A stretch of DNA of 64,000 bases. Origin: an uncultured bacterium. GTDB taxonomy: Bacteria > Krumholzibacteriota > Krumholzibacteriia > Krumholzibacteriales > Krumholzibacteriaceae. This document shows positions 4,453-38,368 of this stretch, one piece after another. The notes beneath the pieces are model-generated. The model was given only the letters and a program-made list of their open reading frames with translations, was not told the DNA's origin and searched no databases. The stretch lies in contig CAYRCK010000004.1 of the NCBI GenBank assembly GCA_964422745.1, positions 4,497 through 68,496 on the forward strand. Reading direction: 5' to 3'. Positions within the stretch are counted from its first letter, which is position 1. Every line of letters starts with the position of its first letter. The position numbers and the translations under genes are program-made.

Positions 4453-5778
4453 ATGAATAGACTTTCCATCCACATAAGAGCCTTCCTGGCATTCACGGCC
4501 CTTCCATCGATACTGGTTGCGCAGCCCCTCGGTAGGCCGTTCATGACACGGAGCGACGCCGCTTTCGAGCTGTCGTTAACCCAGAAGTACGACGATGAGG
4601 GATTGAGCCTGATCGTCGTGGAGACGGCCATACCGTATAGAAGGCTGGTTTTCTTCAAGAAGGAGGATTCCTACGAGGCACGTTACAGGATGTATATGGA
4701 GATAAAGGACGGCAAGGGCGGGTATATCAGCGGTGAGGTATGGGAGGAGCCCGTGAGGGTCTATAGCTACGGAGAAACGAGATTGAATACGGCCGTTTCC
4801 TCTTTGAGAAAGGTTCTCCCGATAGATCCGGGAAAGTACAGGATCAGGATGACACTGGAGATTGTAGATACGTCACTGCTATTTTACCGGGAGAAGGAAA
4901 TAGTCATCGTCGGTGGTGGAGAGGGGAAGCTGGTCCTTGGGGAACCTGTATTCTCGGTCCCCTCGGCCGGAGCGTCACGGCATAAGCCTTCACGGGGCGG
5001 CTTGACGCTCTCGTTGTGTGGGATGGCCGACGGGAACGATTTCAGGATGAGTTCGGATGGCATTTTCGCCGGATTCGACGGGTGGCTGCGGGTAACGATC
5101 AACATCGTGCTGCCCTCCGGGGGGAAAACGGGGGATGATCATATATTGGTTTCGAGCAGGATAAAGAATGCAAGCGGATCGCCTGTTCTCTATCACAGGG
5201 AAAGGGTGCGCACGCTGGATAAGAACTACGCGCACCTTTGCTATGATATCAATGTCGACGACATGAAGATAGGGCTATACGAGATATCAACGAACGTGGA
5301 AATGCCGAGCAGCGGGCAGAAAGCCGGCAGTAAGGCAGAATTCATAGTTCTCCTGAACAGGGGATTGCTGGAGGACAATTTCGAGGAAACACTGGGTATT
5401 CTATCCATTATCGCCGATAAGGACGAGCTCGACGATCTCAGGACATCAACCATGGATAACAGACACGCTGCATGGAGGCGTTTTTGGGAGTCGGGAGGCA
5501 ACTTCGCCGGCGGGGATTGGAAGGAGCGTGAGCTGTCCTTTCTGCGGCGGCTGAAGTACGTTTTGAGGTTTTTCTCGAGCTACGGACCGGGATGGAGGAC
5601 GGATAGGGGCAGAATCTACCTTAGAAACGGTCCTCCCGACAAGGTAGAGGAGAGCCAGGGCAGGCAAATGGGTGAGAGCCTAATATACTGGTTCTACTAT
5701 TCAAAGAATATCGTTTATATATTCAGTGATTCTATCGGAAGTGGCGAGTACAATCTGCTGACGACACAGCTGATATGA
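4453..5778 (+). CDS. Secreted GWxTD-domain protein
   Basis: Signal peptide (AFTALPSILVAQP). C-terminal GWRTDRGRIYLRNGPPDKVE...IYWFYY matches the GWxTD domain signature. Function unknown. Confidence 0.6.
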   Translation: MNRLSIHIRAFLAFTALPSILVAQPLGRPFMTRSDAAFELSLTQKYDDEGLSLIVVETAIPYRRLVFFKKEDSYEARYRMYMEIKDGKGGYISGEVWEEPVRVYSYGETRLNTAVSSLRKVLPIDPGKYRIRMTLEIVDTSLLFYREKEIVIVGGGEGKLVLGEPVFSVPSAGASRHKPSRGGLTLSLCGMADGNDFRMSSDGIFAGFDGWLRVTINIVLPSGGKTGDDHILVSSRIKNASGSPVLYHRERVRTLDKNYAHLCYDINVDDMKIGLYEISTNVEMPSSGQKAGSKAEFIVLLNRGLLEDNFEETLGILSIIADKDELDDLRTSTMDNRHAAWRRFWESGGNFAGGDWKERELSFLRRLKYVLRFFSSYGPGWRTDRGRIYLRNGPPDKVEESQGRQMGESLIYWFYYSKNIVYIFSDSIGSGEYNLLTTQLI

Positions 5779-5779
5779 A

Positions 5780-7339
5780 GTGCGTATGAACTTGTTTCGT
5801 TTGATACTCCCAACCATAGTCATCATAGTGCAGCTCCTGCTCTCCGGGTGTTCGCAGGAGGAGCGTACAGGATTGCTCAGACTCGCTTTACAGACCGAGC
5901 CCAGCACGCTAGATCCCGCCTATGCTGTCGACTATTCATCGGGGATGATCTCGTCCCTGATCCATTCAAATCTCGTGCGATTCGACCCGGAAGGAAAAAT
6001 TCTCGGTGATCTGGCCGAAGGTTGGGAGGTCTCCGAAGACGGCATGAAGTACACGTTCAGGCTAACGACTGCCCGTTTCTCCAGTGGGCGGAATGTGAAT
6101 GCCGAAGATGTCGTGTATTCGTTCAAGCGGCTCCTCGATCCGTCTACCATGTCTCCCAGGTGGTGGGTGCTCGAGCCGATCAGGGGTGCCGAAAATTTTC
6201 ACGGGGGTGGTTATTGGGATGAGACGGCGGTCCACGCACGGGATGATTCCACCCTCGTTCTATATCTGAACAGGCCTGCGGCTCACCTGTTGAGCCTGCT
6301 TACCATGCCTTCGGCGGGGATCGTATGCAGGGAGGAGATCGAAAGCTCCGGGGCCGATTACGGCAGGTCTCCCTGCGGTTGCGGTGCCTGGAAGCTCGTG
6401 GAATGGAGGGAGGGTGAGCGGTTGCTGCTGGAACGAAACAGTTTCTATACGGGGGCTGGACCTCATATCGACGGCATATCGATAAGGATAATACCCGAGT
6501 CCATGACGCGAATAGCAGAATACGAGGTGGGAAACCTGGATGTTCTCGAGATTCCGAGAGCCGAGCTTTCCAGGTGGAAGGAGTCCGGCGTACCGATTAT
6601 CCGAGAGCAGGAGCTCAGGATCGTATACATCGGTTTGAACAATGAGAAGCCGCCGTTCAACATCGCGGCCGTTCGCCGCGCGCTGAACATGGCAATCGAC
6701 GTGGATGCGATCATTTCGAGGGTGATATTCAGCGCCGGTATCGAGGCCAGGGGGATCATACCTCCGGCGCTGCGGTTGGAGCCTATACGGGGGAATGGAT
6801 ACGGCTATGATCCTCAGCAAGCTCGTAAGTTGTTGGCCGACGCGGGATATCCTGATGGATTCAGGATGGAGATTTGGCAGAGGGAAAATCCGGAGGGCGG
6901 GAGGATACTCGAAAGCGTGCAGGGCTACCTGTACGATATCGGAGTTGATGCAGAGCTCGTCACTCGTGAATGGAGCGCATTCAAGATGGCCGTGGATCGC
7001 GGTACACCGGATGCGTTCTACCTTGATTGGTTCGCAGACTATCCGGATGCCGAGAACTTCATGGCCCCGCTTTTCCATTCGGCGAACGCGGGCGGAGGAG
7101 GGAACAGGGCGAGGTATGCAAACAACAGGGTCGACTCGCTTTTCGATGCGGCGGCCCTCACACCCGATGCCGAGGCCAGGTGGAGGATGTACGAGGAAGC
7201 CGAATCGCTCGTCTATCACGATGCTCCGTGGATATTCCTTTGGTTTCCAACAAGATACGAGGCTGTCTCGGATAGGGTCGAAGGTTACCGGATCCCGGCT
7301 ATCTTCAACGCCCAGCGATACCTCGATGTCTCACTGTAA
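5780..7339 (+). CDS. Peptide/nickel ABC transporter substrate-binding lipoprotein (SBP family 5, DppA/OppA/MppA-like)
   Basis: Lipoprotein signal (LLLSGCS). Family-5 SBP fold, length about 519 aa. Followed by DppB/DppC-type permeases. Confidence 0.85.
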   Translation: MRMNLFRLILPTIVIIVQLLLSGCSQEERTGLLRLALQTEPSTLDPAYAVDYSSGMISSLIHSNLVRFDPEGKILGDLAEGWEVSEDGMKYTFRLTTARFSSGRNVNAEDVVYSFKRLLDPSTMSPRWWVLEPIRGAENFHGGGYWDETAVHARDDSTLVLYLNRPAAHLLSLLTMPSAGIVCREEIESSGADYGRSPCGCGAWKLVEWREGERLLLERNSFYTGAGPHIDGISIRIIPESMTRIAEYEVGNLDVLEIPRAELSRWKESGVPIIREQELRIVYIGLNNEKPPFNIAAVRRALNMAIDVDAIISRVIFSAGIEARGIIPPALRLEPIRGNGYGYDPQQARKLLADAGYPDGFRMEIWQRENPEGGRILESVQGYLYDIGVDAELVTREWSAFKMAVDRGTPDAFYLDWFADYPDAENFMAPLFHSANAGGGGNRARYANNRVDSLFDAAALTPDAEARWRMYEEAESLVYHDAPWIFLWFPTRYEAVSDRVEGYRIPAIFNAQRYLDVSL

Positions 7340-7381
7340 AGGTTCAAGGGACGGGATGTACTTAGTCAACCAAGCCGACGA

Positions 7382-8332
7382 ATGACATATGCTATGTTTA
7401 AATATACACTTAAAAGGATCCTGATCCTGATACCCGTCCTCTGGGGTGTCGTTACGATAACCTTTATCATCATGTACGTCGTGCCGGGAGATCCGGTTCT
7501 AGTTTTAGCGGGAGAGAGATACGACGAAAAGACGCTGGTCGAGATGCGCAGAGATCTCGGATTGGATAAGCCCCTGCATATGCAATACCTGGATTACCTC
7601 GGCCGGGTCGTGAGGCTGGATCTGGGGAGATCTTTCGTCACGAGAAGACCTGTAGCCGCGTCGATAGCGGAGAGATTTCCCAAAACGCTGGTTCTGGCGG
7701 CCAGCGCAATGGTCTTGGCGGTTGTAATAGGTGTCTCTATCGGAGGATTGGCGGTCTATAACCGTTTCGCATGGCTCGGCAACTCCCTGATGACCCTATC
7801 GCTGATCGGCGTGTCGATCCCGGTCTTCTGGCTGGGCCTGCTGCTCATAAATATCTTCTCCGTAAGGCTGTCACTGCTTCCGCCGTCGGGTTACGGTGGT
7901 GGTTCTCTTGCCCACCTTTTACTTCCGGCATTGACCCTATCGTTCGCCTCGATGGCTACGGTGGCCAGGGTGACCCGCTCGGGATTCATCGATGCGGCGG
8001 GAGAGGATTTCATCCGGACCGCCAGGGCAAAGGGGATGGGTGAGATCGTCATCATAGGGAAGCATGCATTCAGAAACGCCCTCATACCGGTGATAACCAT
8101 CGTTGGTACGGACTTCGGAAGCTATCTCAGCGGATCGGTGCTCACCGAGTCGATCTTCGGATGGCCGGGACTGGGAAGGCTGATAGTGCAGTCGATAATG
8201 AAAAGGGATTTCCCGGTCATCCAGGGAGCGGTGCTGTTCATGGCTGTTGTTTTTGTGGTCGTAAATCTTTTAGTGGATTTATGTTACGGAATAATTGATC
8301 CGAGGGTCCGGGTAGGTTCAGGAAGGAAGTAG
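7382..8332 (+). CDS. ABC transporter permease (DppB/OppB-type)
   Basis: 6-TM BPD_transp_1 permease with the EAA-like motif region; typical DppB N-terminus. Confidence 0.85.
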   Translation: MTYAMFKYTLKRILILIPVLWGVVTITFIIMYVVPGDPVLVLAGERYDEKTLVEMRRDLGLDKPLHMQYLDYLGRVVRLDLGRSFVTRRPVAASIAERFPKTLVLAASAMVLAVVIGVSIGGLAVYNRFAWLGNSLMTLSLIGVSIPVFWLGLLLINIFSVRLSLLPPSGYGGGSLAHLLLPALTLSFASMATVARVTRSGFIDAAGEDFIRTARAKGMGEIVIIGKHAFRNALIPVITIVGTDFGSYLSGSVLTESIFGWPGLGRLIVQSIMKRDFPVIQGAVLFMAVVFVVVNLLVDLCYGIIDPRVRVGSGRK

Positions 8333-8337
8333 GTGCA

Positions 8338-9231
8338 GTGGCGGGGATCTTGAAGAGGTTCGTACGGCTCAGGACCGCATCTGCCGGATTGGCGGTACTG
8401 ACAGCCGTTCTGTGTCTGACCATACTTACCCTTTTCCTCTCTCCGAACGGCAGGGGCGAGGTCAATCTGGAGAGGTCGTTGAGGCCGCCTTCACTCGGTC
8501 ATCCCTTCGGGACCGATCCCTTCGGAAGGGACGTATTCTACAGGGTTTTCCAAGGCGCGCGCCTTTCCCTCGGCGTATCCTTCCTCGCCAGGTCGATCTC
8601 CCTTCTCCTGGGTCTGGTGCTGGGAGCGGCCGCCGGGTACTTCGGGGGCAGGCTGGACTCCCTATTGATGCGTCTCGCCGACGTCACCTTTGCATTCCCG
8701 GCGCTTCTCCTCCTTATAGCGATAATGGCCGTCGTTTCGCCCGGATTCGTTTCGCTTTTCGTTGCGCTCGGCGTCGTGGGGTGGGCCTCGGTAGCGAGGC
8801 TCGTAAGGGCTCAGGTCCTCGCCGCAAGGGAAAGGGAGTACGTACAGGCGGCGAAGGCCTCGGGGGCCGGCAGTACGGGTGTGATATTGAGGCACATACT
8901 ACCGCAGTGCCTTTCACCGGTTCTGGTTATCTATACCCTCGGACTCGGTATGACGGTTATGGCCGAGGCGAGCTTGAGCTTTCTCGGATTGGGTGTTCAG
9001 CCGCCCGATCCGAGCTGGGGAAGGATGATATCCGACGGGATAGGATTCATGCGGACGGCCCCCTGGCTTACGTTCTTCCCTGGGCTTGTGTTGACGCTGA
9101 CGGTCTGTGCATTTAACATGGTTGGGGACGGCTTGAGGGAAGCGTTGGATCCGCTCTCGGATCGTAGCCGGAGCAGGGTGACCGGGGGCGGGGACGGCTT
9201 TGTCGGTAGGGATCGAGTGCAGGGGGGGTGA
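8338..9231 (+). CDS. ABC transporter permease (DppC/OppC-type)
   Basis: OppC_N-like N-terminus (LGTDPFGRDVFYRV) and permease core. GTG start with RBS. Confidence 0.85.
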   Translation: MAGILKRFVRLRTASAGLAVLTAVLCLTILTLFLSPNGRGEVNLERSLRPPSLGHPFGTDPFGRDVFYRVFQGARLSLGVSFLARSISLLLGLVLGAAAGYFGGRLDSLLMRLADVTFAFPALLLLIAIMAVVSPGFVSLFVALGVVGWASVARLVRAQVLAAREREYVQAAKASGAGSTGVILRHILPQCLSPVLVIYTLGLGMTVMAEASLSFLGLGVQPPDPSWGRMISDGIGFMRTAPWLTFFPGLVLTLTVCAFNMVGDGLREALDPLSDRSRSRVTGGGDGFVGRDRVQGG

Positions 9232-10304
9232 TATCGACGGAGATCACGGAACGTATAACCGATCTGATCCGAAGGGTGGAGCGGGATGCAGGGCTCGACC
9301 GGAGATTCAGCTATTTCAGGCTCAGGACATCGTCGGGTGGAATATTAGAAGTCGAGCTGAGCAGCGAGGAGGTCTTCGGGCGTCTATCCGCCGGTGCCGG
9401 AGGTTTCACCGGCACTATAGAGACTGACGGAACTGCTTTGCTTAGAAGCACATCCGGTGAGATCGCCAGGCTGATTCTTCTTGCATCCGGCGGAACCGAC
9501 CCCCTTTTGGCGGTTTCGAGCGTGGTGGATGTCAGAAAGGAAGCCACCCATTCCTCGGAGCTTTTGACCCAGATGATAATGGGAGAGGACGCGGAAGAGC
9601 TTGCCGCCGATGGAGATTGGTATCTCGTGAGGCTCAGCGACGGATATCACGGATGGGTGAGGTCCTGGTGCGTATCCGGGATCTCGAGGAAGGATATAGA
9701 GGCCTACAACGCGAGGACCAACGTACTCGTTGATGTGAACGTCGGGTCCGTCTATTCAAAACCGGATACGGCGAGCCTGCCGGTCGGGGATGTTGTCTGT
9801 GGAACCCGCCTGCTGGCAGGAGGATCCGAAGGGGGATTCCGGCGCGTAAACCTGCCGGGCGGCAGGGAAGGCTATATGTCTTCAGGCTCGCTGGTACAGC
9901 CACCGGTCGGTGGGCCGGACAGAACGCGCCTGATGGAAAGGGCAAAGCGGCATCTAGGCGTACCCTATATCTGGGGTGGGACATCCGCGAAGGGTTTCGA
10001 CTGCTCGGGATTCGTTTATCGGGTTTTTCTGCTCGAGGGGATCGAGCTTCCGCGCGATTCCGACCGCCAGGCCGCTTCCGGTGATCATATACCGGTGGAG
10101 AGGATAATAGATGATGCGAGGACCGGGGACCTGCTCTTCTTCGGAGATGCCGCCACGGTCAATCACGTGGCGATATATATCGGGGATGGTCTCTATATTC
10201 ACTCCTACGGGGATGTGAGGTTCAACAGCCTCGTGAGCGATGACGAGAGATACGAGCTCAAGCTGGGGAGAACCCTTCTGTTCGCACGTTCCGTCCTCGG
10301 ATGA
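9228..10304 (+). CDS. SH3b-domain NlpC/P60 (C40) peptidase, cytoplasmic, YkfC-like gamma-D-Glu-diamino acid endopeptidase
   Basis: C-terminal NlpC/P60 catalytic core (GVPYIWGG...FDCSGFVYRVF...NHVAIYIGDG). No signal peptide. N-terminal SH3b-like repeats. Overlaps upstream permease stop by 4 nt. Confidence 0.8.
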   Translation: MISTEITERITDLIRRVERDAGLDRRFSYFRLRTSSGGILEVELSSEEVFGRLSAGAGGFTGTIETDGTALLRSTSGEIARLILLASGGTDPLLAVSSVVDVRKEATHSSELLTQMIMGEDAEELAADGDWYLVRLSDGYHGWVRSWCVSGISRKDIEAYNARTNVLVDVNVGSVYSKPDTASLPVGDVVCGTRLLAGGSEGGFRRVNLPGGREGYMSSGSLVQPPVGGPDRTRLMERAKRHLGVPYIWGGTSAKGFDCSGFVYRVFLLEGIELPRDSDRQAASGDHIPVERIIDDARTGDLLFFGDAATVNHVAIYIGDGLYIHSYGDVRFNSLVSDDERYELKLGRTLLFARSVLG

Positions 10305-10354
10305 CGTTGATTCACGAAAGAGGCACCGAAATCATCCCGCCCGGTAACTGTAAT

Positions 10355-10410
10355 TGTGTTAAAAAAAAGTTTAAAAAAGTGTTGACAAGGATTTTAAGCT
10401 GCTTTACGGT
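10355..10410 (+). promoter_or_regulatory. Putative sigma-70 promoter with A-tract UP element for the downstream OMP gene
   Basis: A-rich UP-like tract (aaaaaaaagtttaaaaaag) followed by TTGACA (10382-10387), 17 nt, TACGGT (10405-10410). A roughly 300-nt 5' UTR precedes the start at 10722. Confidence 0.4.
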
Positions 10411-10721
10411 TTCGCCCAATAAAAAGCATATGTTTTTCGAGTACGCAGAAAGGGGGTTTACTCGAATAAAAGACCTACTAGGCAGCTTGTGGGTATAGAC
10501 TTTTTTGAGCGGACTTGCGGTGACGGCCGCACGTACCAATTTAGTGGGGATCAGGCCTGGAAGGAGGGATGCAGGAAACAGAGATTGTGGAGCGTCATCA
10601 GGCGCAGAATAGGTGACCAAGTAACTGGGACGAAATTCGCATGTTGATGCGGTGATATAGAATGGATGTTCCTGAAAGAACTTATCCTGATCAATGGAGA
10701 GTAACTTACAGGGGGAAAGTA

Positions 10722-11984
10722 ATGAAGAAACTATTTCTTTTGATGTTGACGATGGCCGTGGCGGTCTCATTCGCGATGCCGGCGATGGCTACCGATGCCA
10801 GGGTGATGGCTCTGGGCAACACTCAGAACTATCTCGAGGATGATTACAACATCTTCGCATGGCCTGCAACGCTGCCGAGCTACGCCAACCTGGTAATGAT
10901 CGGTCTCTGCGGAGACCCGGATTACTGCTGCGAGTACTACTACCCTTACTACGCTAACGGATGGGAAGGATACTACTGCCAGACCATCATGGGCGGAATC
11001 CTTGGCCTCGGCGAGGACAACAAGTACGGGGCGTTGGGAATGTTCTTCTTCGAGGGCACTCCCGGAATAAACCCCATTCCGTACAGTGAATTCTACGGCG
11101 CTTGGGAATTCGAGTACCTTTTCGCCAGCACAATCTACAACAAGTTCAACGTTCTCTGGGGATACGACATGGAGGGCCTGTCCTTCGGTTTCAACTTCGA
11201 GAGAGCAGACCAGATGTGGAAGGAAGAGAACGACGTAGAGTACGAGAATAAGCATGCCTATACCAAGTTCGCGGCCAGTGTCCGTTTCGATGTCGGCGAG
11301 GCCGGCTATGCGGACCTGGCCTTCAACGTGGCATTCGCCTCGATGACGGACACGCTTGATGGCTACGGTGAGAGGACCGAGGACGGCAACATGCTGTGGG
11401 GTGTCCAGGGCCGCATGTTCTACGAGTACAGCGAGATGTTCACATTCGTGCCGTACATCGGTGTGAGCATGTTCGACTTCTCCACGAAGGTGCAGCGCAA
11501 CAGCGAGGATTACGCGGATTACTACTACGGCGAGAAGGGCATGATGTTCAATACCGGCTTCGGTATCGACATGACGGTCAACGAGGACAACATGCTGCTC
11601 TTCGCCATCGAGCCCTATTCCTTCGGCAAGTTCGAGCCGTCGGAGCCGCCCGACGGAGTCGAGGCATGGGGCAAGGTCGTGTACTTCCCGCGTTTCCGCC
11701 TGGCTCTCGAGAGCGATGTCAAGGACTGGCTGACCTTCAGAGCCGGCTGCGTGAAGGAGCTCCAGAAGACGGAGGTCTTCTACAGCTATGAGGACGACGA
11801 GTCGACGTACACCGATACCTGTGGTGATTTCTACTACATGATGGGTCTCGGCTTCCACATCGGCGACTTCGACATCGACTGCGTAGTCAACAACGAGCTT
11901 CCATTCACGATGGGATACTGGCTGACCGGATTCGAGAACACGGAGCAGCCGATCTGGATGCTTACGGCGCTCTACCACTTCTAA
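10722..11984 (+). CDS. Outer-membrane beta-barrel protein, aromatic/acidic-rich, uncharacterised (probably abundant OMP)
   Basis: RBS GGGGGAAAG 4 nt before ATG 10722. Signal peptide MKKLFLLMLTMAVAVSFAMPAMA. C-terminal LYHF (terminal Phe typical of OM barrels). Strong bias to C/G-ending codons unlike neighbours. Promoter and strong terminator flank it. Confidence 0.55.
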   Translation: MKKLFLLMLTMAVAVSFAMPAMATDARVMALGNTQNYLEDDYNIFAWPATLPSYANLVMIGLCGDPDYCCEYYYPYYANGWEGYYCQTIMGGILGLGEDNKYGALGMFFFEGTPGINPIPYSEFYGAWEFEYLFASTIYNKFNVLWGYDMEGLSFGFNFERADQMWKEENDVEYENKHAYTKFAASVRFDVGEAGYADLAFNVAFASMTDTLDGYGERTEDGNMLWGVQGRMFYEYSEMFTFVPYIGVSMFDFSTKVQRNSEDYADYYYGEKGMMFNTGFGIDMTVNEDNMLLFAIEPYSFGKFEPSEPPDGVEAWGKVVYFPRFRLALESDVKDWLTFRAGCVKELQKTEVFYSYEDDESTYTDTCGDFYYMMGLGFHIGDFDIDCVVNNELPFTMGYWLTGFENTEQPIWMLTALYHF

Positions 11985-12010
11985 TCCGTATTAGTTTTGG
12001 TAAACCTCAC

Positions 12011-12047
12011 ACGGGGGGCTGTTGCACACGGTCCCCCGTATCTTTTT
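12011..12047 (+). terminator. Rho-independent terminator after the OMP gene
   Basis: Stem ACGGGGGGC/GTCCCCCGT (9 bp, one G-U) followed by ATCTTTTT. Confidence 0.7.
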
Positions 12048-12136
12048 CCTCCTCGTAGTCCATTTTTTACAACGATTTACCTTTCTGGTCTGTTAATTGC
12101 AATCTGAATTGCAGTAAGCGCATGTAGAGGAGAAAA

Positions 12137-13384
12137 TTGTATTTTTTCTATTACATCCCTGTCGGCCTGGACATCCGAGTAACGCGAAGAACCGCGATAA
12201 CATATTTTATGGCAAGCTCTTGCGTTGTCGTGTTTCTGGTTTCGAGATATATGCTCTCGGGCCCGTGGTGGAACTTCATGAACCTCGTCTTCTGGCCAGC
12301 CAATCCCTCGCTGTCTACCGCGGTTACGCATATCTTTATGCATACCAGCTACTTACACCTTATAGGCAATATCGTTTACATCCTTATCTTCGGTAGGGCC
12401 GTGGAGGACCGCTTCGGGCCGCTGAGGTTCACCTTGATCTTCGTTCTGTCCGCAGTAGCGGGTGCATATACGCATATGCTGTTCACCGCTCTCTTCTCGC
12501 CTCCGCTGCACGGATTGGGTGTCGTAGGCGCATCAGGAGCCACATCGGGGCTTCTTGGGGCTTTCCTCGTGCGATTCTACTTCAGCAGGGTACGCGTCGC
12601 CTATTGGGTGTTCATGCCCCTTCAGGGTGTGAATAGAGCCGGCAGGACCTATGCGCCGGTTGTATGCGCATTGCTCCTCTGGCTTCTATTTCAGGGCACA
12701 TATGCCGTTATACAGCTCGGGACGAATGGTTTTGGAATCGCGTATCTTGTTCATATCGGTGGATTTGGAACCGGAGTGCTTCTAGCAGTAGCGTTCGGAG
12801 CCAGGGGGGCGGCCGGTGCAGAGAGGCACCTCACAAAGGCCAGGTTGCACTTCACCGGGGCGAACTGGTTCGCATCGCAGGGGGAGTACCTCAACTACCT
12901 CTCCGTCCGGCCGGACGACGCCTCCGCCACAACGGAAGCGGCCAGGGCATTCGTTTGTACGCGTGACATGGGTCCGGCACGCGAACACTACCGGAAGGCC
13001 ATAGACCTCTGCATGAGAAGTGGCGCTCGCCAGGATGCCGAGGACATCTTCAAGGAGGCGATACGCTCCATAGAGGGTTTCGCTCTGCCACCGGAGCTTC
13101 ATCTCGATCTGGCCTTCATGATGGAGAGGACTTTGAAATTCCAATCGGCTGTAGCCGCGTACAGGAACTATCTCTCGACCTACCCGCGGTCTCAGGAAGC
13201 TCCTTTCATATTGCTCAGGATCGCCGGTATACTGGAGAAGAGGTTCCGGAAACCCGCGTTGTCCCTCTCGCTGCTGAAGAGGATACTCGGGGAGTACCAC
13301 GATGATGTTTGGGCTGATTACACGCGGTCCGAGGTAGAGAGGCTGGAGCGAGCCGGATGGGCGGCATCTACCGGCCCTGCTTGA
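12137..13384 (+). CDS. Rhomboid-family intramembrane serine protease with C-terminal TPR-like domain
   Basis: Rhomboid core with GASGATSG (catalytic Ser) and the downstream His in AYLVHIGGFG. About 170-aa helical TPR-like C-terminal extension. Start may be at a later Met. Confidence 0.75.
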   Translation: MYFFYYIPVGLDIRVTRRTAITYFMASSCVVVFLVSRYMLSGPWWNFMNLVFWPANPSLSTAVTHIFMHTSYLHLIGNIVYILIFGRAVEDRFGPLRFTLIFVLSAVAGAYTHMLFTALFSPPLHGLGVVGASGATSGLLGAFLVRFYFSRVRVAYWVFMPLQGVNRAGRTYAPVVCALLLWLLFQGTYAVIQLGTNGFGIAYLVHIGGFGTGVLLAVAFGARGAAGAERHLTKARLHFTGANWFASQGEYLNYLSVRPDDASATTEAARAFVCTRDMGPAREHYRKAIDLCMRSGARQDAEDIFKEAIRSIEGFALPPELHLDLAFMMERTLKFQSAVAAYRNYLSTYPRSQEAPFILLRIAGILEKRFRKPALSLSLLKRILGEYHDDVWADYTRSEVERLERAGWAASTGPA

Positions 13385-13510
13385 ATTTTACCGGCGCGGC
13401 GGGTACGAGTGAGTTAAAGAACCAATTCCCGGCTCTTTGCTCGTCTGATTGGAAGGCAGGATTAAAATATCTTGAATTGACACGGACGTTCTGCTAGATT
13501 CTGCGAGGAT

Positions 13511-14206
13511 GTGGGGTGGTGTGGTTTGCGAGGTTCAACAAAATCGCTGCTCGAAGTCCTGAGATCCAAGTGGTGCCTGAGAGGGTGCAATAGGCTGGGG
13601 GACAACGAGTTGCTGGCCTTGGTTCTCGGCAGTGCGAACCACAGGTCCGGAGGGGCAATCGCACAAGAACTTATGGATCACTACGGTGACCTGATGGAGA
13701 TCGGCAATGCCGGGGTGGATGAGCTCATGGGTTTCAGGGGTATCGGTAGAGCGGCGGCCCTCCGCTTGAAGGCTTCTATCGAACTCGGGAGGCGCTGTAT
13801 AATCTGCGGCAGGGAGCGCGTTTACACCAAGGTTTGTTCGCCCGAAGATGTTGCCGGTTTGATGATTCCCGAGATGAAAGGATTGGATAGGGAGCATTTC
13901 AAGGCAATTCTGCTGAACACCAAGAACCGCATCCTCAGGATCGTAACGGTCGCGGTGGGATCATTGAACGCGGCTCTCGTGCATCCCAGAGAGATATTCA
14001 AGGCGGCGGTTATCGCGAGCGCCGCCGGAATCATCATCGTGCACAACCATCCAACCGGCAATCCGGAGCCGAGCCGCGAGGATGAAGAGCTCACGGTGCG
14101 TTTCGCCAAATGCGGAGAGCTGATGGGCATAGATGTAGTGGATCACATCATCGTCGGGGACGGTCATTTCGTCAGCATGAGGGAAAGAGGTCTGCTCAGT
14201 ACATGA
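13511..14206 (+). CDS. radC: RadC-family JAB/MPN domain protein
   Basis: HhH-like N-terminus and JAMM motif HNHPTGNPEPS...D. Conserved radC-mreBCD synteny. Confidence 0.85.
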   Translation: MGWCGLRGSTKSLLEVLRSKWCLRGCNRLGDNELLALVLGSANHRSGGAIAQELMDHYGDLMEIGNAGVDELMGFRGIGRAAALRLKASIELGRRCIICGRERVYTKVCSPEDVAGLMIPEMKGLDREHFKAILLNTKNRILRIVTVAVGSLNAALVHPREIFKAAVIASAAGIIIVHNHPTGNPEPSREDEELTVRFAKCGELMGIDVVDHIIVGDGHFVSMRERGLLST

Positions 14207-14221
14207 AAGGAAGGAATAAAC

Positions 14222-15256
14222 TTGCTAGGTCGCATATCGACATACCTATCCAATGATATTGCGATAGATCTCGGGACCGCGAATACATTGATCTATCTCA
14301 AGGGCAGTGGAATTGTGATCAATGAGCCATCCGTCGTAGCCGTGGATCAAAAAACCAAGAAGGTCTACGCCGTTGGAGCGGATGCCAAATCGATGCTCGG
14401 GAAAACGCCGGATCACATCATTGCTGTCAGGCCCATGAAGGACGGCGTAATAGCGGATTTCGATATAACGGAGGTCATGCTCAGGGAGTTCATAAAGAGA
14501 TCCCAGAAGAGACGTTTCTTCATCAGGCCCAGGATCGTGATCAGCGTGCCTTCAGGGATAACCGAGGTAGAGCGGCGCGCCGTTGTCGACTCGGCCCAGA
14601 ATGCAGGTGCAAGAGAGGTATATCTCGTTGCGGAGCCTATAGCGGCGGCGATAGGGGTGGGATTGCCCGTTGACAAGCCGTCCGGTAACATGGTCATAGA
14701 CATCGGCGGAGGTACGACGGAGATCGCCGTCATTGCCCTTAACGGGATCGTGACGGATATATCCATTCGTGTCGGAGGGGATGAAATGGACGAAGTGATC
14801 ATCCAGCATGTCAAGAAGACTTATAATCTGCTGATCGGTGATCAGACCGCAGAGCATGTGAAGATGGTTATAGGATCCGCAACAAAGCTCAATCAGGAAG
14901 AAGAGATGGAAATAAAGGGCAGGGACCTGGTCTCCGGCATTCCAAAGATTCTCAGGATCTCGAGTGTTGAAATCCGGGAAGCGCTCACCGAACCGCTCAG
15001 TCAGATAGTAGCGGCGCTTAGGACAGCATTGGAGCAGACTCCGCCGGAGCTTGCCGCAGACATCGTGGAAAGAGGCATAGTCATGACGGGTGGAGGGTCG
15101 ATGCTCAAGGGTATGGATAATTTCCTCAAGGAGGAGACGAACCTGCCTATCAACGTCGTCGAGGATCCATTGACCTGCGTAGTGTTGGGAAGCGGAAAGA
15201 TCCTGGGATCACTGCACCTTTACGAGCGGATAATAATGAGAAGCTCCCGGTTGTAA
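14222..15256 (+). CDS. mreB: Rod shape-determining protein MreB
   Basis: Actin-like ATPase; N-terminus IAIDLGTANTLIY, 344 aa; followed by mreC and mreD. Confidence 0.95.
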   Translation: MLGRISTYLSNDIAIDLGTANTLIYLKGSGIVINEPSVVAVDQKTKKVYAVGADAKSMLGKTPDHIIAVRPMKDGVIADFDITEVMLREFIKRSQKRRFFIRPRIVISVPSGITEVERRAVVDSAQNAGAREVYLVAEPIAAAIGVGLPVDKPSGNMVIDIGGGTTEIAVIALNGIVTDISIRVGGDEMDEVIIQHVKKTYNLLIGDQTAEHVKMVIGSATKLNQEEEMEIKGRDLVSGIPKILRISSVEIREALTEPLSQIVAALRTALEQTPPELAADIVERGIVMTGGGSMLKGMDNFLKEETNLPINVVEDPLTCVVLGSGKILGSLHLYERIIMRSSRL

Positions 15257-15258
15257 GC

Positions 15259-16098
15259 ATGCAGATTCTTTCTTTCCTTTTCGATAAGCACATCGATAAA
15301 ACGGTTCTCGCTGTTGCTGTAGCGATGTCTCTTCTTCTGCTTACCCGAAGCGAGGAGAGCAAAGTCAGATCCGCCAGGGCCGTATCGGATGTTCTCCTCT
15401 ATCCCATACACAGCACGGAGAAATATTTCAGTGATATTGACGAGTTGAGGGAGGAGAACCGGAAACTAAGGAGATTATCGGCATCGCTCTATCATGAGAG
15501 GGAGAAACTGCTGCAGTTCAAGGATGAGAGAAACCGGTTACGGAGATTGGCAGGCCTCAGGGAGGACTCATTTTTCGATTTTCTGCCGTGCGAGGTTACC
15601 GCCCGTTCCTCGAACCGCTTTCACAACTCGGTTACCATTGACAGGGGCGGTTCCGACGGTGTCAGGGTCGGAATGGCGGTGGTCGGCTACCGGGGAGTCG
15701 TAGGGCGCGTGACACAGGTTTTCGGCAGCACGTCCAGGGTCTTGCTTCTTAACAACAAATCGATTTCCGTCAGCTGCCGTGATAAGCGCAGCCGTGTCGT
15801 AGGTATACTCGAATGGGACAAGGGGAACCTGTTTAAGCTGGAATTCATAGGTAAAGAGGAAGACGTGATCGTGGGGGACACCCTGTTGACGAGCGGTTTG
15901 GGTGAGCTTTTCCCCAAGGGTTTTCCGCTGGGCACGGTTTTTCATGTTACGGAGGAGAGGAGCGGCCTGTACAGAAACGTTGGGGTTGTCAGCATGGCCA
16001 ATCTCAAAACCCTGGAAGAGCTTTTCGTCGTGGTCGGCGGCAGGGACTGGGAAAATACCAGGATCTACGAGGAGCTCGAACAATCGCTCAAGGACTAG
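15259..16098 (+). CDS. mreC: Rod shape-determining protein MreC
   Basis: N-terminal TM, coiled coil, C-terminal beta domain. Position after mreB. Confidence 0.85.
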   Translation: MQILSFLFDKHIDKTVLAVAVAMSLLLLTRSEESKVRSARAVSDVLLYPIHSTEKYFSDIDELREENRKLRRLSASLYHEREKLLQFKDERNRLRRLAGLREDSFFDFLPCEVTARSSNRFHNSVTIDRGGSDGVRVGMAVVGYRGVVGRVTQVFGSTSRVLLLNNKSISVSCRDKRSRVVGILEWDKGNLFKLEFIGKEEDVIVGDTLLTSGLGELFPKGFPLGTVFHVTEERSGLYRNVGVVSMANLKTLEELFVVVGGRDWENTRIYEELEQSLKD

Positions 16099-27572: not shown

Positions 27573-27599
27573 TTCGATACAATCGATAAGGATTCTTTT

Positions 27600-27683
27600 G
27601 CCGGGATGGTGGAACTGGTAGACACGCTACCTTGAGGAGGTAGTGGGCCAACGCCTGTGCGGGTTCGAGTCCCGCTTCCGGCA
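27600..27683 (+). tRNA. tRNA-Leu (anticodon GAG), class II with long variable arm
   Basis: Acceptor GCCGGGA/TCCCGGC. Anticodon stem CTACC/GGTAG with loop TTGAGGA. Long variable arm. T-arm GCGGGTTCGAGTCCCGC. Discriminator A; CCA not encoded. Confidence 0.85.
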
Positions 27684-27694
27684 TTTTTTTCACG

Positions 27695-27865: not shown

Positions 27866-28348
27866 ATGGAGCTCGGGAACGTATTGCTATACGTATCACT
27901 GGGATCGGCTGTAATAGCTCTATTGGCGATCCTCTACCTCTTCAGGGAGATCAGGAGATTGAAGAGGCCGTTCCGGTCGATGGCCGAGATCTACGAGAAC
28001 CAGGGGGCCGAACAGTCAATCGAGGAGCTTTTCAAGGGCATTGACGAGAATCGCGAGTTCCTCCGCGCTCACTCAGACGAGCTGCAGAAGATCCTGGGCA
28101 GGGTGGATAGGTGCTACAGCGGTATGGGGATCGTCAAATACAACGCCTTCGAGGACATCGGGGGCATGCAGAGTTACTCCTTGTGCCTTCTGACAAGCGA
28201 GAGGAACGGATTGATAGTAACCAACCTGGTGGGCAGGAATTCGGCGCGTGGCTACGCCCTCGAGGTTGATGACGGGAAGCCCTCCCGCGAGCTCAGCGAA
28301 GAGGAATCGCAGGCCCTCGAAGCCGCCGTGCGTTATCTGTCTGCTTGA
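27866..28348 (+). CDS. DUF4446-like small membrane-anchored protein
   Basis: N-terminal TM, charged linker, C-terminal segment GIVKYNAFEDIGGMQSYSLCLL...LSEEESQALEAA matching the DUF4446 pattern as I recall it. Confidence 0.5.
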   Translation: MELGNVLLYVSLGSAVIALLAILYLFREIRRLKRPFRSMAEIYENQGAEQSIEELFKGIDENREFLRAHSDELQKILGRVDRCYSGMGIVKYNAFEDIGGMQSYSLCLLTSERNGLIVTNLVGRNSARGYALEVDDGKPSRELSEEESQALEAAVRYLSA

Positions 28349-36551: not shown

Positions 36552-38249
36552 ATGCAAACTGGCCGTAATATCCTGGTTTGCCTGCTCATTCTAGTGATTT
36601 CCGCAGTGGGGTGCGGTAACGATGGTGACGGCGGTGGTGGAAAGGCCGGAGCCGGAGAGCACAGTGCTCGATCCGGGCTCGGTTCGGCTGATATGGAGCC
36701 CGGCTACGGAGGCCGCCTCGTTATCGGAATGCAGCAGGAACCCGAGATTCTCAATGAAGCCGTAAACAGCATGGTCAGCATCGTCTATGTATGCAATTTC
36801 ATATTCAGCAAATTTGTCAAGCACAACGACCGGATGGAACTGGTTCCCGACCTTATCACGGAGATTCCGGCTATCGAGAACGGAGGAATTTCTGATGATT
36901 ACCTGAGGTATACCTATCATCTCAGAAAGGATGCCCGGTGGCATGACGGAGCTCCCGTTACATCGGCTGACGTGCGTTTCACGTATAACCTGATGATCCA
37001 TCCGCAGGTGAACGTGGAGACACGCCAGGGGTGGGATATCATAGAGAGCGTCGAAACACCGGATCCCCATACCGTGATTTTCAACCTGTCCGAGGCATAT
37101 TCCAACTTCACGGGTGACTGTTTCTACGATGAATCCGTGCTTCCGGCCCACCTTCTGGAAGGCGAGGTCGGTCCGAATTTCCAGGGTGCGCCGTTTCACC
37201 GGCACCCCGTGGGCTCGGGACCGTTCATCTTCAAGGAGTGGGTGGCGGGTTCGCATATAACACTCACCGCCAACGAGGATTACTACGGTGATGGTCCGTA
37301 CCTGGACGAGGTCGAGATAAGGTTCATACCCGACGGGAACGCTCTGGTCATTCAGCTCGAAACCGGCGCTATAATGGGAATCGACAACGCCCCGATCGCT
37401 CTACTGGATGTGGTTGCTTCGCTCCCGGAAATCGAGGTTTTCAGAAACCCTGCGTTGTTCAACGAGCATATCGATCTGAACTGCGACAATCCGATACTCG
37501 GAGATAAACGCGTCAGAAGGGCTTTGTCGCTGGCAGCCGATCGTAACGAGCTTTCGGAGAAGATCTACGAGGGGGTGTGGATCCCGGCGTACAGCGATGA
37601 TCATCCCAATTCTCCCTATCACACGGAAACCGGGAAGATAATGAATTCTTATAATCCCGGAGAGGCCGGGAGGCTTTTGGACGATGTGGGATGGATCGAC
37701 AATGACGGCGACGGTATAAGGGAAAAGGACGGGCAGGAGCTGCAGCTTGTGATTTCCACGACCGCCGGAAGGTTGAACAGGGAGCGGACAGAACTCGTTC
37801 TGAGAGAACAGTATGGAAAGGTGGGTATAGACCTGCAGATAAAGAACTATCACCCGACGGTCATGTTCGGCAGCTACGATGAGGGTGGCATCCTGAAAAA
37901 CGGCGACTTCGACATGGCCCTCTATGCCTTTCTCACTCCTCCCGATCCCTCCACGAAGGAGGGCAGCTATTCGGCGAGGTTCGTCCCCCCGGCGGGTCAA
38001 AATTATTCCAGACTGAAGATCGATCGGCTGACCCGCCTGCTAAGCGAAGGCAGCCGGGAGATCGTGTTCGAGAGGAGAAAGGGTATATACGACGAGGTCG
38101 CTGTCATCTTGGCCGAGGAGGCGCCCATCATCCCGCTGCTATGGGTAGTTCAGCTCGATGCCATGCCTCGTTCATTGAACGGCTACAGACCAAATCCGAC
38201 CCAGTCCGGTGATAGCTGGAACGCGAACGAATGGTGGTTTTCGAAGTAG
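36552..38249 (+). CDS. Peptide/nickel ABC transporter substrate-binding lipoprotein (SBP family 5)
   Basis: RBS AGGAGGA before ATG 36552. Lipobox LVISAVGCGN. Family-5 SBP fold. Confidence 0.85.
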   Translation: MQTGRNILVCLLILVISAVGCGNDGDGGGGKAGAGEHSARSGLGSADMEPGYGGRLVIGMQQEPEILNEAVNSMVSIVYVCNFIFSKFVKHNDRMELVPDLITEIPAIENGGISDDYLRYTYHLRKDARWHDGAPVTSADVRFTYNLMIHPQVNVETRQGWDIIESVETPDPHTVIFNLSEAYSNFTGDCFYDESVLPAHLLEGEVGPNFQGAPFHRHPVGSGPFIFKEWVAGSHITLTANEDYYGDGPYLDEVEIRFIPDGNALVIQLETGAIMGIDNAPIALLDVVASLPEIEVFRNPALFNEHIDLNCDNPILGDKRVRRALSLAADRNELSEKIYEGVWIPAYSDDHPNSPYHTETGKIMNSYNPGEAGRLLDDVGWIDNDGDGIREKDGQELQLVISTTAGRLNRERTELVLREQYGKVGIDLQIKNYHPTVMFGSYDEGGILKNGDFDMALYAFLTPPDPSTKEGSYSARFVPPAGQNYSRLKIDRLTRLLSEGSREIVFERRKGIYDEVAVILAEEAPIIPLLWVVQLDAMPRSLNGYRPNPTQSGDSWNANEWWFSK

Positions 38250-38262
38250 AGATCGTCCGGGG

Positions 38263-38278: not shown

Positions 38279-38368
38279 AGTGTGTCGATCGGCCGGCGGT
38301 CCCGTGCAAAATCCGGATGCGTTACTCCTATTCCGATGCCGGGGTCGAGCCCTTTGGACCGGCCGTAA

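Follow-up and report, generated by a model that had tools for sequence, protein, structure and literature searches.

The gene described here, which we call popA-like, lies in a stretch of 64,000 nucleotides of DNA from an uncultured Krumholzibacteriota bacterium (the window), and encodes a protein of 420 aa. Over 60 loci of Krumholzibacteriota and Latescibacterota have the gene as a single copy in a fixed gene order: NlpC/P60, popA-like gene, rhomboid, RadC and MreB. It can be regarded as a single-copy core gene within an envelope and cell-shape neighbourhood of Krumholzibacteriota. The true start is ATG 10722; some database calls begin at an upstream ATG (10662) and give a 440-aa version, which we judge to be an artefact of gene calling. 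The elements of the transcription unit are as follows.

10361..10378, + strand: UP-element-like A-tracts (A8, GTTT, A6; the tracts at 10361-10368 and 10373-10378) just 5' of the -35 hexamer, recognised from sequence
10382..10387, + strand: -35 hexamer TTGACA
10405..10410, + strand: -10 hexamer TACGGT after a 17-nt spacer, aligned position conserved
10411..10417, + strand: GC-rich block TTCGCCC between the -10 hexamer and the presumed start site
10418..10721, + strand: conserved 5' leader of about 304 nt, delimited with nhmmer, its 5' end inferred from promoter geometry
10709..10716, + strand: ribosome-binding site CAGGGGGA, 6 nt before ATG 10722
10722..11984, + strand: coding sequence, 420 aa, PopA-superfamily outer-membrane beta-barrel
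12011..12046, + strand: intrinsic terminator from a terminator scan, with a 12-bp stem (12011-12039; 8 GC), a 5-nt loop and a T-run

Promoter, terminator and codon usage

The sequence features that a first-pass annotation listed for this gene are all present where it placed them, and most are conserved in orthologous loci. Since such conservation outweighs chance in one sequence, we regard them as real. In particular, the proposed promoter some 300 nt upstream, consisting of an A-tract and TTGACA-N17-TACGGT, has its A-tract and its -35 hexamer invariant in all 25 aligned loci, including the five A's immediately before TGTTGACA. TTGACA is found 282-347 nt 5' of the ATG in 42/42 close loci, and 21 of the 22 distant (Latescibacterota-type) loci have an A-tract and TTGACA promoter before a leader of 221-380 nt. 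The -10 hexamer of orthologous loci is TAATTT, TACTTT or TAGTTT, with the family consensus TAnnTT. The TACGGT of the window fails the -10 rule of the consensus scan, which is why this promoter is absent from the scan listing. The pattern TTGACA-N16-18-TANNTT has no other match in the window, whose own -10 hexamer is TACGGT. The CGCCC of the GC-rich block is present in about 90% of leaders; given a start site placed by promoter geometry, the block would either be discriminator-like or make up the beginning of the transcript. Inside the leader, 60-85 nt before the ATG, there is also a weak promoter-like match, TTCGCA-16-TAGAAT.

The ribosome-binding site described as strong has the core ACAGGrGG, which is invariant in the family and stands 6-8 nt before the ATG. 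The proposed GC-stem and U-tract terminator likewise has an equivalent in 34 of 35 orthologous loci, located 20-75 nt (mostly 20-30) past the stop codon. This supports a transcription unit that stands alone and has a long leader. Such a clean and deeply conserved combination of strong promoter, long structured leader and terminator around a probable major outer-membrane protein (OMP) gene is of value as an example outside Proteobacteria.

The GC3 of the popA-like gene is 0.81, the highest among the 58 ORFs of the window, and GC3 is above the mean of the neighbours in 36/42 loci. C-ending codons make up 0.81 of F/Y/D/N/H codons and AAG 0.93 of Lys codons, while ATA is limited to 0.08 of Ile codons (neighbours typically 0.3-0.7) and AGR to 0.44 of Arg codons (neighbours about 0.55-0.75). 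The codon bias toward C/G endings, unlike that of the neighbours, is therefore as first noted, and the closest codon profile is that of flagellin (61614-63002). The further claim of high expression receives indirect support from the promoter architecture, the flagellin-like codon bias, the strong terminator and the precedent of the PopA family, relatives of PopA being major or highly expressed OMPs (PMC12228718). Most likely, the product is the principal and very abundant OMP of this Krumholzibacteriota-type bacterium, and its role is most likely structural or surface-related rather than general diffusion. A likely dominant surface protein is relevant to phage receptors and adhesion, to low-LPS surfaces and to the design of markers or antigens.

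The encoded protein

The following features can be assigned to the protein.

10722..10790, + strand: Sec signal peptide, aa 1-23, MKKLFLLMLTMAVAVSFAMPAMA, recognised from sequence
10791..10889, + strand: putative N-terminal plug region, aa 24-56, with helices at 25-30 and 48-54, from the AlphaFold model and the PopA-profile alignment
10905..10979, + strand: hypervariable Tyr/Cys-rich surface loop, aa 62-86, CGDPDYCCEYYYPYYANGWEGYYC, with low pLDDT at residues 69-84
11889..11951, + strand: loop 8, aa 390-410, the 21 residues between strands 15 and 16, with a helix at 393-400; presumed oligomerisation and lipid-chamber element
11952..11981, + strand: C-terminal strand (411-419) and beta-signal (...PIWMLTALYHF)

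The protein had been described as an aromatic-rich outer-membrane barrel with a signal peptide and a C-terminal LYHF signature, and each of these points is retained. The signal peptide (MKK...AMA|TD) has a cleavage context, A-x-A|T, that is conserved across the family, with A23 invariant. At the C-terminus, Y418 is invariant and F420 is present in at least 90% of the family. The mature protein contains 20.6% F+W+Y, 15.9% D+E and 5.3% K+R. The Cys pairs noted in DYCCEYYYPYY are also present, this loop holding four (C63, C69, C70 and C86) of the seven Cys of the protein, but they are lineage-specific and not a family feature: the loop is hypervariable, and its length and Cys content vary widely across homologues. 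The N-terminal region, by comparison, covers positions 1-60 in the alignment with the PopA profile and carries the family invariants R27, D40, T50, L51 and Y54 within aa 24-56. The best-conserved motif of the family, LPFxxGYWLTG, is located in loop 8.

The AlphaFold model (AF2; pLDDT 87) contains N-terminal helices and, according to DSSP, 16 strands (57-63 through 411-419). The modelled strands are of 7, 9, 7 and 13 residues, then 17-22 (ten strands), then 7 and 9, so that the predicted barrel is uneven in height as in the PopA superfamily, with strands 1-3 and 15-16 short and strands 5-14 tall. The top fold matches of the model are all outer-membrane barrels, and its closest structural neighbour is PopA (Bd0427), the pentameric outer membrane protein A of Bdellovibrio bacteriovorus (PDB 9ga1, 9gf0; Parr et al., Nat Commun 2025; PMC12228718), not another OMP class.

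Profile comparison points the same way. The sole NCBIfam match is NF053618 PopA (58.4 bits, E 8e-16; 6e-10 without the signal peptide), which is matched by 59/64 family members with a best E-value of 7.7e-21. Ten more distant profile matches were all found to match NF053618 alone, at 34-83 bits. The curated cut-off of this model, named 'PopA family porin-like outer membrane protein', is 150 bits and is reached neither by the popA-like protein nor by the ten distant relatives; the protein is thus a relative outside the curated subfamily. A Pfam scan of the protein gives no family even at E<=10, and sequence searches of the PDB, with the single protein or with a profile of 64 sequences, return nothing relevant, so that homology to PopA rests on the fold and the sub-threshold HMM match. 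On these grounds the earlier statement that no named family applies can be revised: the protein is assignable to the PopA superfamily, described in 2025. Judged by profile and model together, the gene encodes a PopA-superfamily OMP, and members of that family are described as 'porin-like', not as diffusion porins. Two uncultured phyla thereby get a name for one of their conserved 'hypothetical proteins', and the superfamily is extended to Krumholzibacteriota, a phylum with no member in the table of the PopA paper (PMC12228718).

Members of the superfamily have a tight N-terminal helical plug, a barrel with a short inward edge and a tall outer wall, and a conserved hydrophobic loop 8 by which the oligomer is organised and the chamber lined; they form tetramers, pentamers or hexamers with a continuous outer wall around a central lipid chamber (PMC12228718). 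The solved PopA is a plugged barrel that passes only glycine and alanine, while some models of the superfamily have an open channel (PMC12228718). By analogy, the popA-like protein would be exported by Sec, cleaved and folded into a 16-stranded barrel, whose lumen is probably filled by the conserved helical plug. Given short strands 1-3 and 15-16 beside tall strands 5-14, several copies are proposed to join edge-to-edge around loop 8 as in the solved PopA. Together they would form a radial oligomer in the shape of a bowl, with a patch of lipid from the inner leaflet enclosed in it. In Table S3 of the PopA paper a loop 8 of 18-32 aa goes with hexamers (PMC12228718); the loop 8 of the popA-like protein, with 21 aa and a helix, fits this class, and extrapolation from its length and helix suggests a hexamer.

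Alternatively, the protein might be a FadL/TodX-like monomeric channel for hydrophobic substrates, in which an N-terminal hatch gates lateral diffusion and the likeness to PopA reflects a shared plugged-barrel ancestry. We consider this improbable: the FadL/TodX family is monomeric, with a 14-stranded barrel and an N-terminal hatch, and the popA-like protein has 16 predicted strands and no Pfam match, FadL/Toluene_X (PF03349) included. Still less credible is an ordinary trimeric open-channel general-diffusion porin too diverged for sequence models; classical porins are open 16- or 18-strand trimers with a loop 3 constriction, and none of their profiles (Pfam Porin_1, Porin_4, OprD-type and so on) matches the protein.

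The conserved leader

The elements recognised in the leader are listed below.

10436..10466, + strand: hairpin H1 (UUCGAGUA/UACUCGAA), from sequence and MFE fold
10448-10456, + strand: SD-like box 1, GAAAGGGGG, in the loop of H1
10511..10537, + strand: hairpin H3 (GGACUUGCGG...CCGCACGUACC), from compensatory changes
10556..10575, + strand: short hairpin (CCUG/CAGG) presenting SD-like box 2
10559-10569, + strand: SD-like box 2, GGAAGGAGGGA, from complementarity to an assumed 16S 3' tail
10592..10605, + strand: hairpin H5 (GCGUC/GGCGC), from compensatory changes
10637..10652, + strand: hairpin H6 (UCGCAU GUUG AUGCGG), from covariation
10651..10662, + strand: invariant unpaired block GGUGAUAUAGAA, the most conserved leader segment
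10669..10674, + strand: UUCCUG, complementary to CAGGrG of the ribosome-binding site, a possible anti-SD, from the pairing count
10682..10701, + strand: hairpin H7 (a pyrimidine-rich arm and a GGGAG-type arm), from covariation

The long 5' UTR of the first-pass annotation corresponds to a leader of about 300 nt that is retained in front of popA-like genes of two phyla. Its length is conserved, and so, for the most part, are its sequence and its structure. An nhmmer search finds exactly one copy per locus, always adjoining the popA-like ATG, and one copy in the window. Among matches to its pattern in metagenomes, 21 of 30 have a popA-like ORF downstream and the other nine do not. For more distant PopA relatives there are three short contigs, each of 1.3-2 kb, in which the upstream gaps measure about 200 and 360 nt. 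Rfam 15 has no relevant match at E<=1 within 10200-12200 of the window; at the gathering threshold there is none in 15 orthologous loci, and the whole window has one tRNA only.

Compensatory changes are present in at least four of the leader hairpins. Two pairs of H3 are counted as UA:21/CG:16/UG:4 and GC:23/AU:7/GU:5, and two of H5 as GC:28/UA:8 and CG:31/UA:6/GC:1. For H3 and H5 together, 90.8% of cells pair, as against 33-42% with the partners slid, and double-change cells number 42, compared with 14.1±4.7 in shuffles (0/500). In H6, 94.9% of cells are paired and the double changes include CCAC/GUGG and CCGU/ACGG, and in H7 double changes occur at four of the six pairs (UA:18/CG:9/UG:7 among them). 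The stem of H1 also differs between clades, for example as CCGGG/CCCGG. Over the leader helices, G·U outnumbers A·C by 101 to 42, which favours an RNA of the + strand. We take the leader to be a cis-acting RNA that is both conserved and folded. The block GGUGAUAUAGAA, at 10651..10662, overlaps the weak promoter-like match mentioned above.

A difficulty arises when the whole leader is folded at once: RNAalifold on full-length MAFFT alignments yields a sparse structure, owing to register shifts in those alignments, and segment-wise and L-INS-i alignments were used instead. A covariance model of the central leader domain (R1) recovers held-out leaders of the close clade (L022 and L013) but fails to recover those of the distant clade, apart from one marginal match (L062, E 0.02). 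A pairing of the 5' CGCCC with the GGGGG of box 1 was rejected; it shows no covariation and is broken where the box is GGAGG, and CGCCC may be a promoter discriminator rather than a partner of box 1. The 47 aligned leaders can be used directly to seed a new RNA family.

The SD-like boxes were scored against an assumed 16S 3' tail, not that of this organism, as the window contains no rRNA. On this scale box 2 is the strongest site in the leader of the window, at -17.7 kcal/mol as against -9.4 for the real SD. The same holds for the clade medians, which under the assumed tail are -16.2 (internal box) and -11.7 kcal/mol (real SD) in the close clade, and -18.6 and -13.4 kcal/mol in the distant clade, where the internal box is AAGGAGGUGAUG. 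A box is present at the equivalent place in 66/66 leaders, and box 1 is located at about nt 32-38 in 44 of the 46 close-clade leaders scored. Because the leaders are purine-rich, the internal box is stronger than all 20 shuffles in only 37/66 leaders. No conserved start codon or uORF follows box 2 across the leaders; a uORF is absent in 37/46 close leaders and inconsistent in length elsewhere, and was rejected. CsrA-type GGA sites were judged unlikely by inspection, the boxes being GGGGG, not GGA, in most clades.

From these sequence patterns, the role of the leader is most likely the docking of 30S subunits at the boxes. One or two boxes that can pair with the 16S rRNA 3' tail, the internal features of the leader with the deepest conservation, would dock 30S subunits, as a STAB-SD or a standby site, and the docked subunits would protect the mRNA, feed the real start site, or both. 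The stabilising role of the ompA type that had been suggested for the UTR is plausible, although the conserved features suggest internal boxes complementary to the anti-SD more than a likeness to ompA.

The leader might instead be a regulatory switch and not a stabiliser, that is, a riboswitch, an RNA thermometer or an operator for an RNA-binding protein or sRNA, with UUCCUG shutting the SD until a signal arrives. UUCCUG and the CAGGrG of the SD, including the preceding CA, are complementary and nearly invariant, with 95.4% of cells pairing, yet covariation is lacking in this helix, where both sides are almost invariant and the changes are confined to U-A to U-G. For the SD, the predicted probability of being unpaired has a median of 0.21-0.25, compared with 0.42 over the whole leader, but this occlusion is barely above that of dinucleotide shuffles (0.25 vs 0.31), of which a median of 45% are as low. 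A ligand or a protein might bind at the invariant unpaired block GGUnAUAUAGAA; no known riboswitch or thermometer family in Rfam is matched by the leader. A competing partner for UUCCUG could be the CAGGAA/GGGAAC segment upstream of it, with 70% of cells pairing, but this alternative helix loses its pairing without compensation in one clade (L026/L030/L050) and was rejected. An attenuator-type terminator is not evident in the leader sequence or in the predicted folds. Overall, we consider a switch unlikely.

It is much less probable still that the upstream conservation reflects DNA-level sites of a regulator, a separate small RNA gene under the TTGACA promoter or a short ORF, the OMP gene using a proximal promoter. 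The start site of the TTGACA promoter is a matter of inference, and TTCGCA-16-TAGAAT would serve as the proximal promoter; no conserved hexamer is seen at its -35 region, however, which falls within a hairpin that covaries. The leader helices stay paired by way of compensatory and G·U changes, which act on the RNA and speak against the DNA-site reading. Conservation is continuous from the promoter through the SD, and nothing like a terminator is found between the leader and the coding sequence. As for a short ORF, gene callers place one of 65 aa at 10301-10498, but it overlaps the TTGACA promoter itself and the alignment contains non-triplet indels; we judge it an artefact.

A PopA-superfamily barrel made from a solitary transcription unit, under a cis-acting leader with 30S-docking boxes, is accordingly the joint reading that we prefer and regard as probable. 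A bolder extension, which we put forward only tentatively and think rather doubtful, is that the leader is an undescribed class of cis-acting RNA, kept throughout the history of Krumholzibacteriota and Latescibacterota, whose internal 'super-Shine-Dalgarno' box docks 30S subunits away from start codons and so stabilises the mRNA, loads it, or both. If true, this would be a STAB-SD-like mechanism in a diderm lineage of the FCB group, coupled to an rrn-like promoter. In any case, the internal boxes provide a testable hypothesis, namely that docked ribosomes stabilise an mRNA in a diderm.

Comparison with known systems

Promoters of the rrnB P1 type are strong and growth-rate-regulated, with an UP element, a near-consensus -35 hexamer and a GC-rich discriminator. 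The popA-like promoter is similar in its A-tract UP-like element, its perfect TTGACA and the CGCCC after the -10 hexamer, but differs in a weak -10 hexamer (TAnnTT; TACGGT in the window) and a 17-nt spacer. The 5' UTR of E. coli ompA is a 133-nt mRNA-stabilising leader of a major OMP. Both are long untranslated leaders with hairpins on a monocistronic OMP mRNA, abundant in E. coli and presumably here; the popA-like leader is longer, at about 300 nt, has no sequence or Rfam similarity to that of ompA and contains internal SD-like boxes.

The STAB-SD of cry3A was reportedly described by Agaisse and Lereclus in 1996. In the cry3A mRNA of Bacillus thuringiensis, which is very highly expressed, it is a non-initiating SD-like sequence in a long 5' UTR, with complementarity to the 16S 3' end (PMC4113751). 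The popA-like leader similarly has SD-like boxes that are complementary to the (assumed) 16S 3' end and lack a conserved start codon after them. The STAB-SD, on the other hand, acts against RNase J1 in a Gram-positive, whereas the popA-like host is a diderm of the FCB group; the close clade has two boxes, one of them mid-leader on a hairpin, and binding and stabilisation are here predicted. On promoters or leaders of the predicted hexameric members of the superfamily the PopA paper is silent, the words 'UTR', 'untranslated' and 'promoter' being absent from its main text (PMC12228718).

PopA (Bd0427) itself shares only 13-15% identity with the popA-like protein and has 353 aa as against 420. 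Its loop 8 is of 16 aa, whereas that of the popA-like protein has 21 aa and a helix, which would fit a hexamer better than a pentamer. The popA-like protein further differs in its large hypervariable Tyr/Cys-rich first loop, and its host shows no sign of a predatory lifestyle. Closer counterparts are the predicted hexameric members of the superfamily, which include Fibrobacter FSU_2404, Ignavibacteriales IPM56_03505, Latescibacterota C4574_01495 and a Zixibacteria member from the FCB group, as well as Treponema TDE_2508, and relatives among them are reported to be highly expressed (PMC12228718). C4574_01495 may well be an orthologue of the popA-like family. Although the predicted hexamers are defined by multimer models and the popA-like protein by a monomer model, they agree in a length of about 390-430 aa, an FCB-group host and a helical loop 8 of 18-32 aa.

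The gene, its promoter and its neighbourhood

Window positions 10355-12047 hold one free-standing gene, here called popA-like, whose coding sequence (10722-11984, +) specifies 420 amino acids. The start is placed at ATG 10722 because CAGGGGGA lies 6 bases upstream and all homologues align from the MKK... start. A 440-aa frame from ATG 10662, found in the ORF list and in some public calls, was rejected as the coding sequence; it falls in the same protein cluster as the 420-aa product. A public 65-aa ORF call (10301-10498, +) covers the promoter and the early part of the leader, that is, the 5' UTR between promoter and ATG. Since the promoter, leader and RBS are conserved, both this call and the 10662 start look like annotation artefacts. 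The promoter parts, terminator, signal peptide and C-terminus described in the first-pass annotation were all recovered:

10361-10378 (+), A-tracts
10382-10387 (+), -35 element TTGACA
10405-10410 (+), -10 element TACGGT, separated from the -35 by a 17-nt spacer
Start of the 420-aa product, Sec signal peptide MKKLFLLMLTMAVAVSFAMPAMA, followed by TD of the mature chain
12011-12039 (+), intrinsic terminator, a 12-bp stem with 8 GC pairs and then a T-run

The mature chain consists of 20.6% Phe+Trp+Tyr, 15.9% Asp+Glu and 5.3% Lys+Arg, and the product contains 7 Cys and ends in ...TALYHF.

The A-tract and TGTTGACA are invariant in 25 of 25 aligned loci; 17 nt after the invariant TTGACA, the aligned loci have TAnnTT and then a conserved TTCGCCC block. 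Promoters of the rrn-P1 type combine a UP element, a strong -35 and a GC-rich block following the -10. With its UP-like A-tracts, perfect -35 and GC-rich block after the -10, the popA-like promoter would appear to resemble this type.

A scan of one genome per species gave 63 related loci, labelled almost entirely Krumholzibacteriota or Latescibacterota. An Opp-like ABC transporter and an NlpC/P60-SH3 peptidase lie upstream and rhomboid, RadC, MreB and MreC genes downstream; the order SBP5, permease, permease, NlpC/P60-SH3, popA-like, rhomboid, RadC, MreB(-MreC) is kept in essentially all of the 60+ loci (window 5780-16098, +; L002-L064). A diverged second peptide-type ABC transporter set lies at 36711-41846, its SBP5 paralogue being 24% and its two permease paralogues ~38% identical to the set upstream of the popA-like gene.

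The popA-like gene itself is single-copy within the 64-kb window and is the fastest-diverging of the set, with 25-50% identity across loci against 74-90% for MreB, as expected of a surface-exposed protein. In two loci the frame seems interrupted: in L035 (~4990-5430) the C-terminus is out of frame, and in L050 (4001-5298) the match is limited to the last third. These could be assembly errors or genuine disruptions.

Family, assembly and expression of the product

A Pfam scan of the protein gave no family, even at E<=10, and PDB sequence searches returned nothing relevant. The single NCBIfam match is NF053618, "PopA family porin-like outer membrane protein" (E 8e-16; 58 bits, under the 150-bit cut-off). 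It is kept without the signal peptide (E 6e-10), is common to 59 of 64 homologues, and is the sole match for 10 more distant relatives, taken from the 1,428 proteins found at E<=1e-3 when 1.84 billion representatives were searched with a profile.

With a 64-sequence alignment as input, AlphaFold2 gives a model (pLDDT 87.1, pTM 0.84) in which two short N-terminal helices (residues 25-30 and 48-54) precede 16 strands. Strand lengths are uneven: 7-9 residues in the short strands 1-3 and 15-16, 13 in the intermediate strand 4, and 17-22 in the long strands 5-14. PopA (Bd0427) of Bdellovibrio bacteriovorus is reported as a 16-stranded barrel with a helical plug and a "flattened edge", its tall outer wall being built by strands 5-14 (Parr et al. 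2025, PMC12228718). The model shares this architecture in its strand number, N-terminal helices, short edge strands and tall strands 5-14. In a Foldseek search of the PDB the four best-ranked chains are all PopA (E 2.7e-10 to 5.4e-10, target TM 0.69-0.72), and the class ranked after them is at E 1.8e-6. The outer-membrane barrel proposed in the first-pass annotation is thus upheld by structure prediction; its reading of the protein as one without a place in a named porin family, and the connotation of a porin, are not. On the strength of the NF053618 matches, the model architecture and the Foldseek ranking, we assign the protein to the PopA superfamily, though not to the narrow NCBIfam subfamily, as a probable new member of this recently described kind.

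At the centre of the PopA oligomer stands loop 8, which connects strands 15 and 16 and lines a chamber trapping inner-leaflet lipid; the length of this loop is reported to predict the symmetry, with 5-9 aa for a tetramer, 9-19 for a pentamer, and 18-32 with helical content for a hexamer (PMC12228718). The modelled popA-like loop 8 spans residues 390-410 (21 aa), of which 393-400 are helical, and its motif LPFxxGYWLTG is the best-conserved stretch across the family. By the PopA length rule, the most likely assembly would therefore be a hexamer with a central lipid chamber. The superfamily table of the PopA paper includes a 410-aa hexamer-type member from Latescibacterota and none from Krumholzibacteriota (PMC12228718). 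The Tyr/Cys-rich segment at aa 62-86 is a hypervariable first loop of low model confidence, and its four Cys are lineage-specific: a different C...P...C pair occurs in some relatives, and none in many others.

The GC3 of the popA-like gene (0.81) is the highest of the 58 ORFs in the window. C-ending codons make up 0.81 of F/Y/D/N/H, and AAG 0.93 of Lys; ATA is used for 0.08 of Ile (neighbours, ~0.3-0.7) and AGR for 0.44 of Arg (neighbours, ~0.55-0.75). Orthologues exceed the mean GC3 of their neighbours in 36 of 42 loci, and 34 of 35 loci carry a strong terminator behind the stop codon. Among outer-membrane proteins, PopA and its relatives are described as major or highly expressed (PMC12228718). 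Codon bias, terminator and the PopA precedent are together consistent with the high expression proposed in the first-pass annotation. The closest codon profile in the window is that of a flagellin gene (Flagellin_N + Flagellin_C; 61614-63002, +; GC3 0.75, C-ending two-fold codons 0.77), which can be used as an internal "highly expressed" reference and from which the organism is probably motile. A DUF4446 gene (27866-28348, +) has the second-highest GC3 (0.76) and the highest C-ending share (0.85) in the window, and may be another highly expressed gene.

Conservation and folding of the leader

The remaining interest of the locus lies in the mechanism of the leader. With the start site placed ~7 nt past the -10, the leader spans ~304 nt in the window (10418-10721). 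The non-coding gap upstream of the gene is ~340-450 nt in nearly all loci, and a TTGACA precedes the ATG by 282-347 nt in 42 of 42 loci of the close clade. With an nhmmer profile built from 47 distinct leaders, every locus yields a single copy, in each case directly adjoining the ATG, and the 64-kb window likewise contains one copy only. This agrees with the long 5' UTR of the first-pass annotation. An exact pattern from the 3' part of the leader has 30 metagenome matches, 21 of them directly before a popA-like ORF; the other 9 have no such ORF after them and look like chance matches.

Four leader hairpins (H3, H5, H6 and H7) stay paired via compensatory changes. For H3 and H5 together, 90.8% of cells are paired, against 33-42% with the partners slid, and 42 cells are double changes, against 14.1±4.7 in shuffles (0 of 500 reach 42). 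H6 is 94.9% paired, with double changes at 3 of 5 pairs, and H7 79.4%, with double changes at 4 of 6. G·U exceeds A·C in the covarying helices (101 against 42), in keeping with folding of the + strand RNA. An unpaired block, GGUnAUAUAGAA (10651-10662), is invariant among leaders. Rfam gave no match for the popA-like region at E<=1 and none in 15 orthologous loci at the gathering threshold. The sole Rfam/ARAGORN RNA gene in the whole window is a tRNA-Leu (anticodon GAG; 27599-27684, +). In sum, the leader is a genuine cis-element, conserved and structured, that has no counterpart in Rfam.

A covariance model of the central leader domain recovers held-out leaders of the close clade, but not those of the distant, Latescibacterota-type clade (L051-L063). 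The distant loci have the same A-run and TTGACA promoter with leaders of 221-380 nt, and these leaders, ~300-380 nt upstream of the ATG, form conserved hairpins of their own and contain AAGGAGGUGAUGG...UUGAUCG as an invariant segment. Therefore, the features common to both phyla are the promoter, the leader length and an internal box.

Internal boxes complementary to the anti-SD

Besides the promoter and the true Shine-Dalgarno (SD) sequence, this box, complementary to the usual 16S 3' tail, is the most deeply conserved feature of the leader. The close clade has two:

10448-10456 (+), box 1, GAAAGGGGG, ~32-38 nt from the presumed 5' end, in the loop of hairpin H1
10559-10569 (+), box 2, GGAAGGAGGGA, ~120-165 nt from the presumed 5' end, in a short hairpin

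The distant clade has a single mid-leader box, typically AAGGAGGUGAUG. As the window holds no rRNA, the usual 16S tail was assumed, and on this assumption the best internal box is predicted to bind the anti-SD as strongly as, or more strongly than, the genuine SD in 66 of 66 leaders (medians for close and distant clades: boxes, -16.2 and -18.6 kcal/mol; SD, -11.7 and -13.4). The box beats all 20 shuffles in 37 of 66 leaders, a moderate per-leader significance. No conserved start codon or uORF follows the boxes across leaders; in several L051-L063 leaders an AUG within the box opens a 5-codon frame (MDSGF/MGSGN), which is not kept in all.

Docking of 30S subunits at the boxes would stabilise the popA-like mRNA in a STAB-SD-like manner; use of the boxes as a standby site is an equally compatible reading. 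A rival reading is a translational switch, with the SD possibly masked by UUCCUG (10669-10674), which is invariant. It draws on the complementarity of the two in 95% of cells and on predictions in which the SD is mostly paired, but their helix has no covariation, and the predicted occlusion of the SD barely differs from that in shuffled controls (0.25 against 0.31). As for stabilisation by docked 30S subunits, in the STAB-SD of Bacillus thuringiensis cry3A mRNA decay in the 5'-3' direction is blocked by a 30S subunit that occupies the 5' UTR (PMC4113751). The popA-like boxes share with it, as a likeness of sequence, its defining feature at that level: complementarity to the anti-SD without a conserved start codon behind it.
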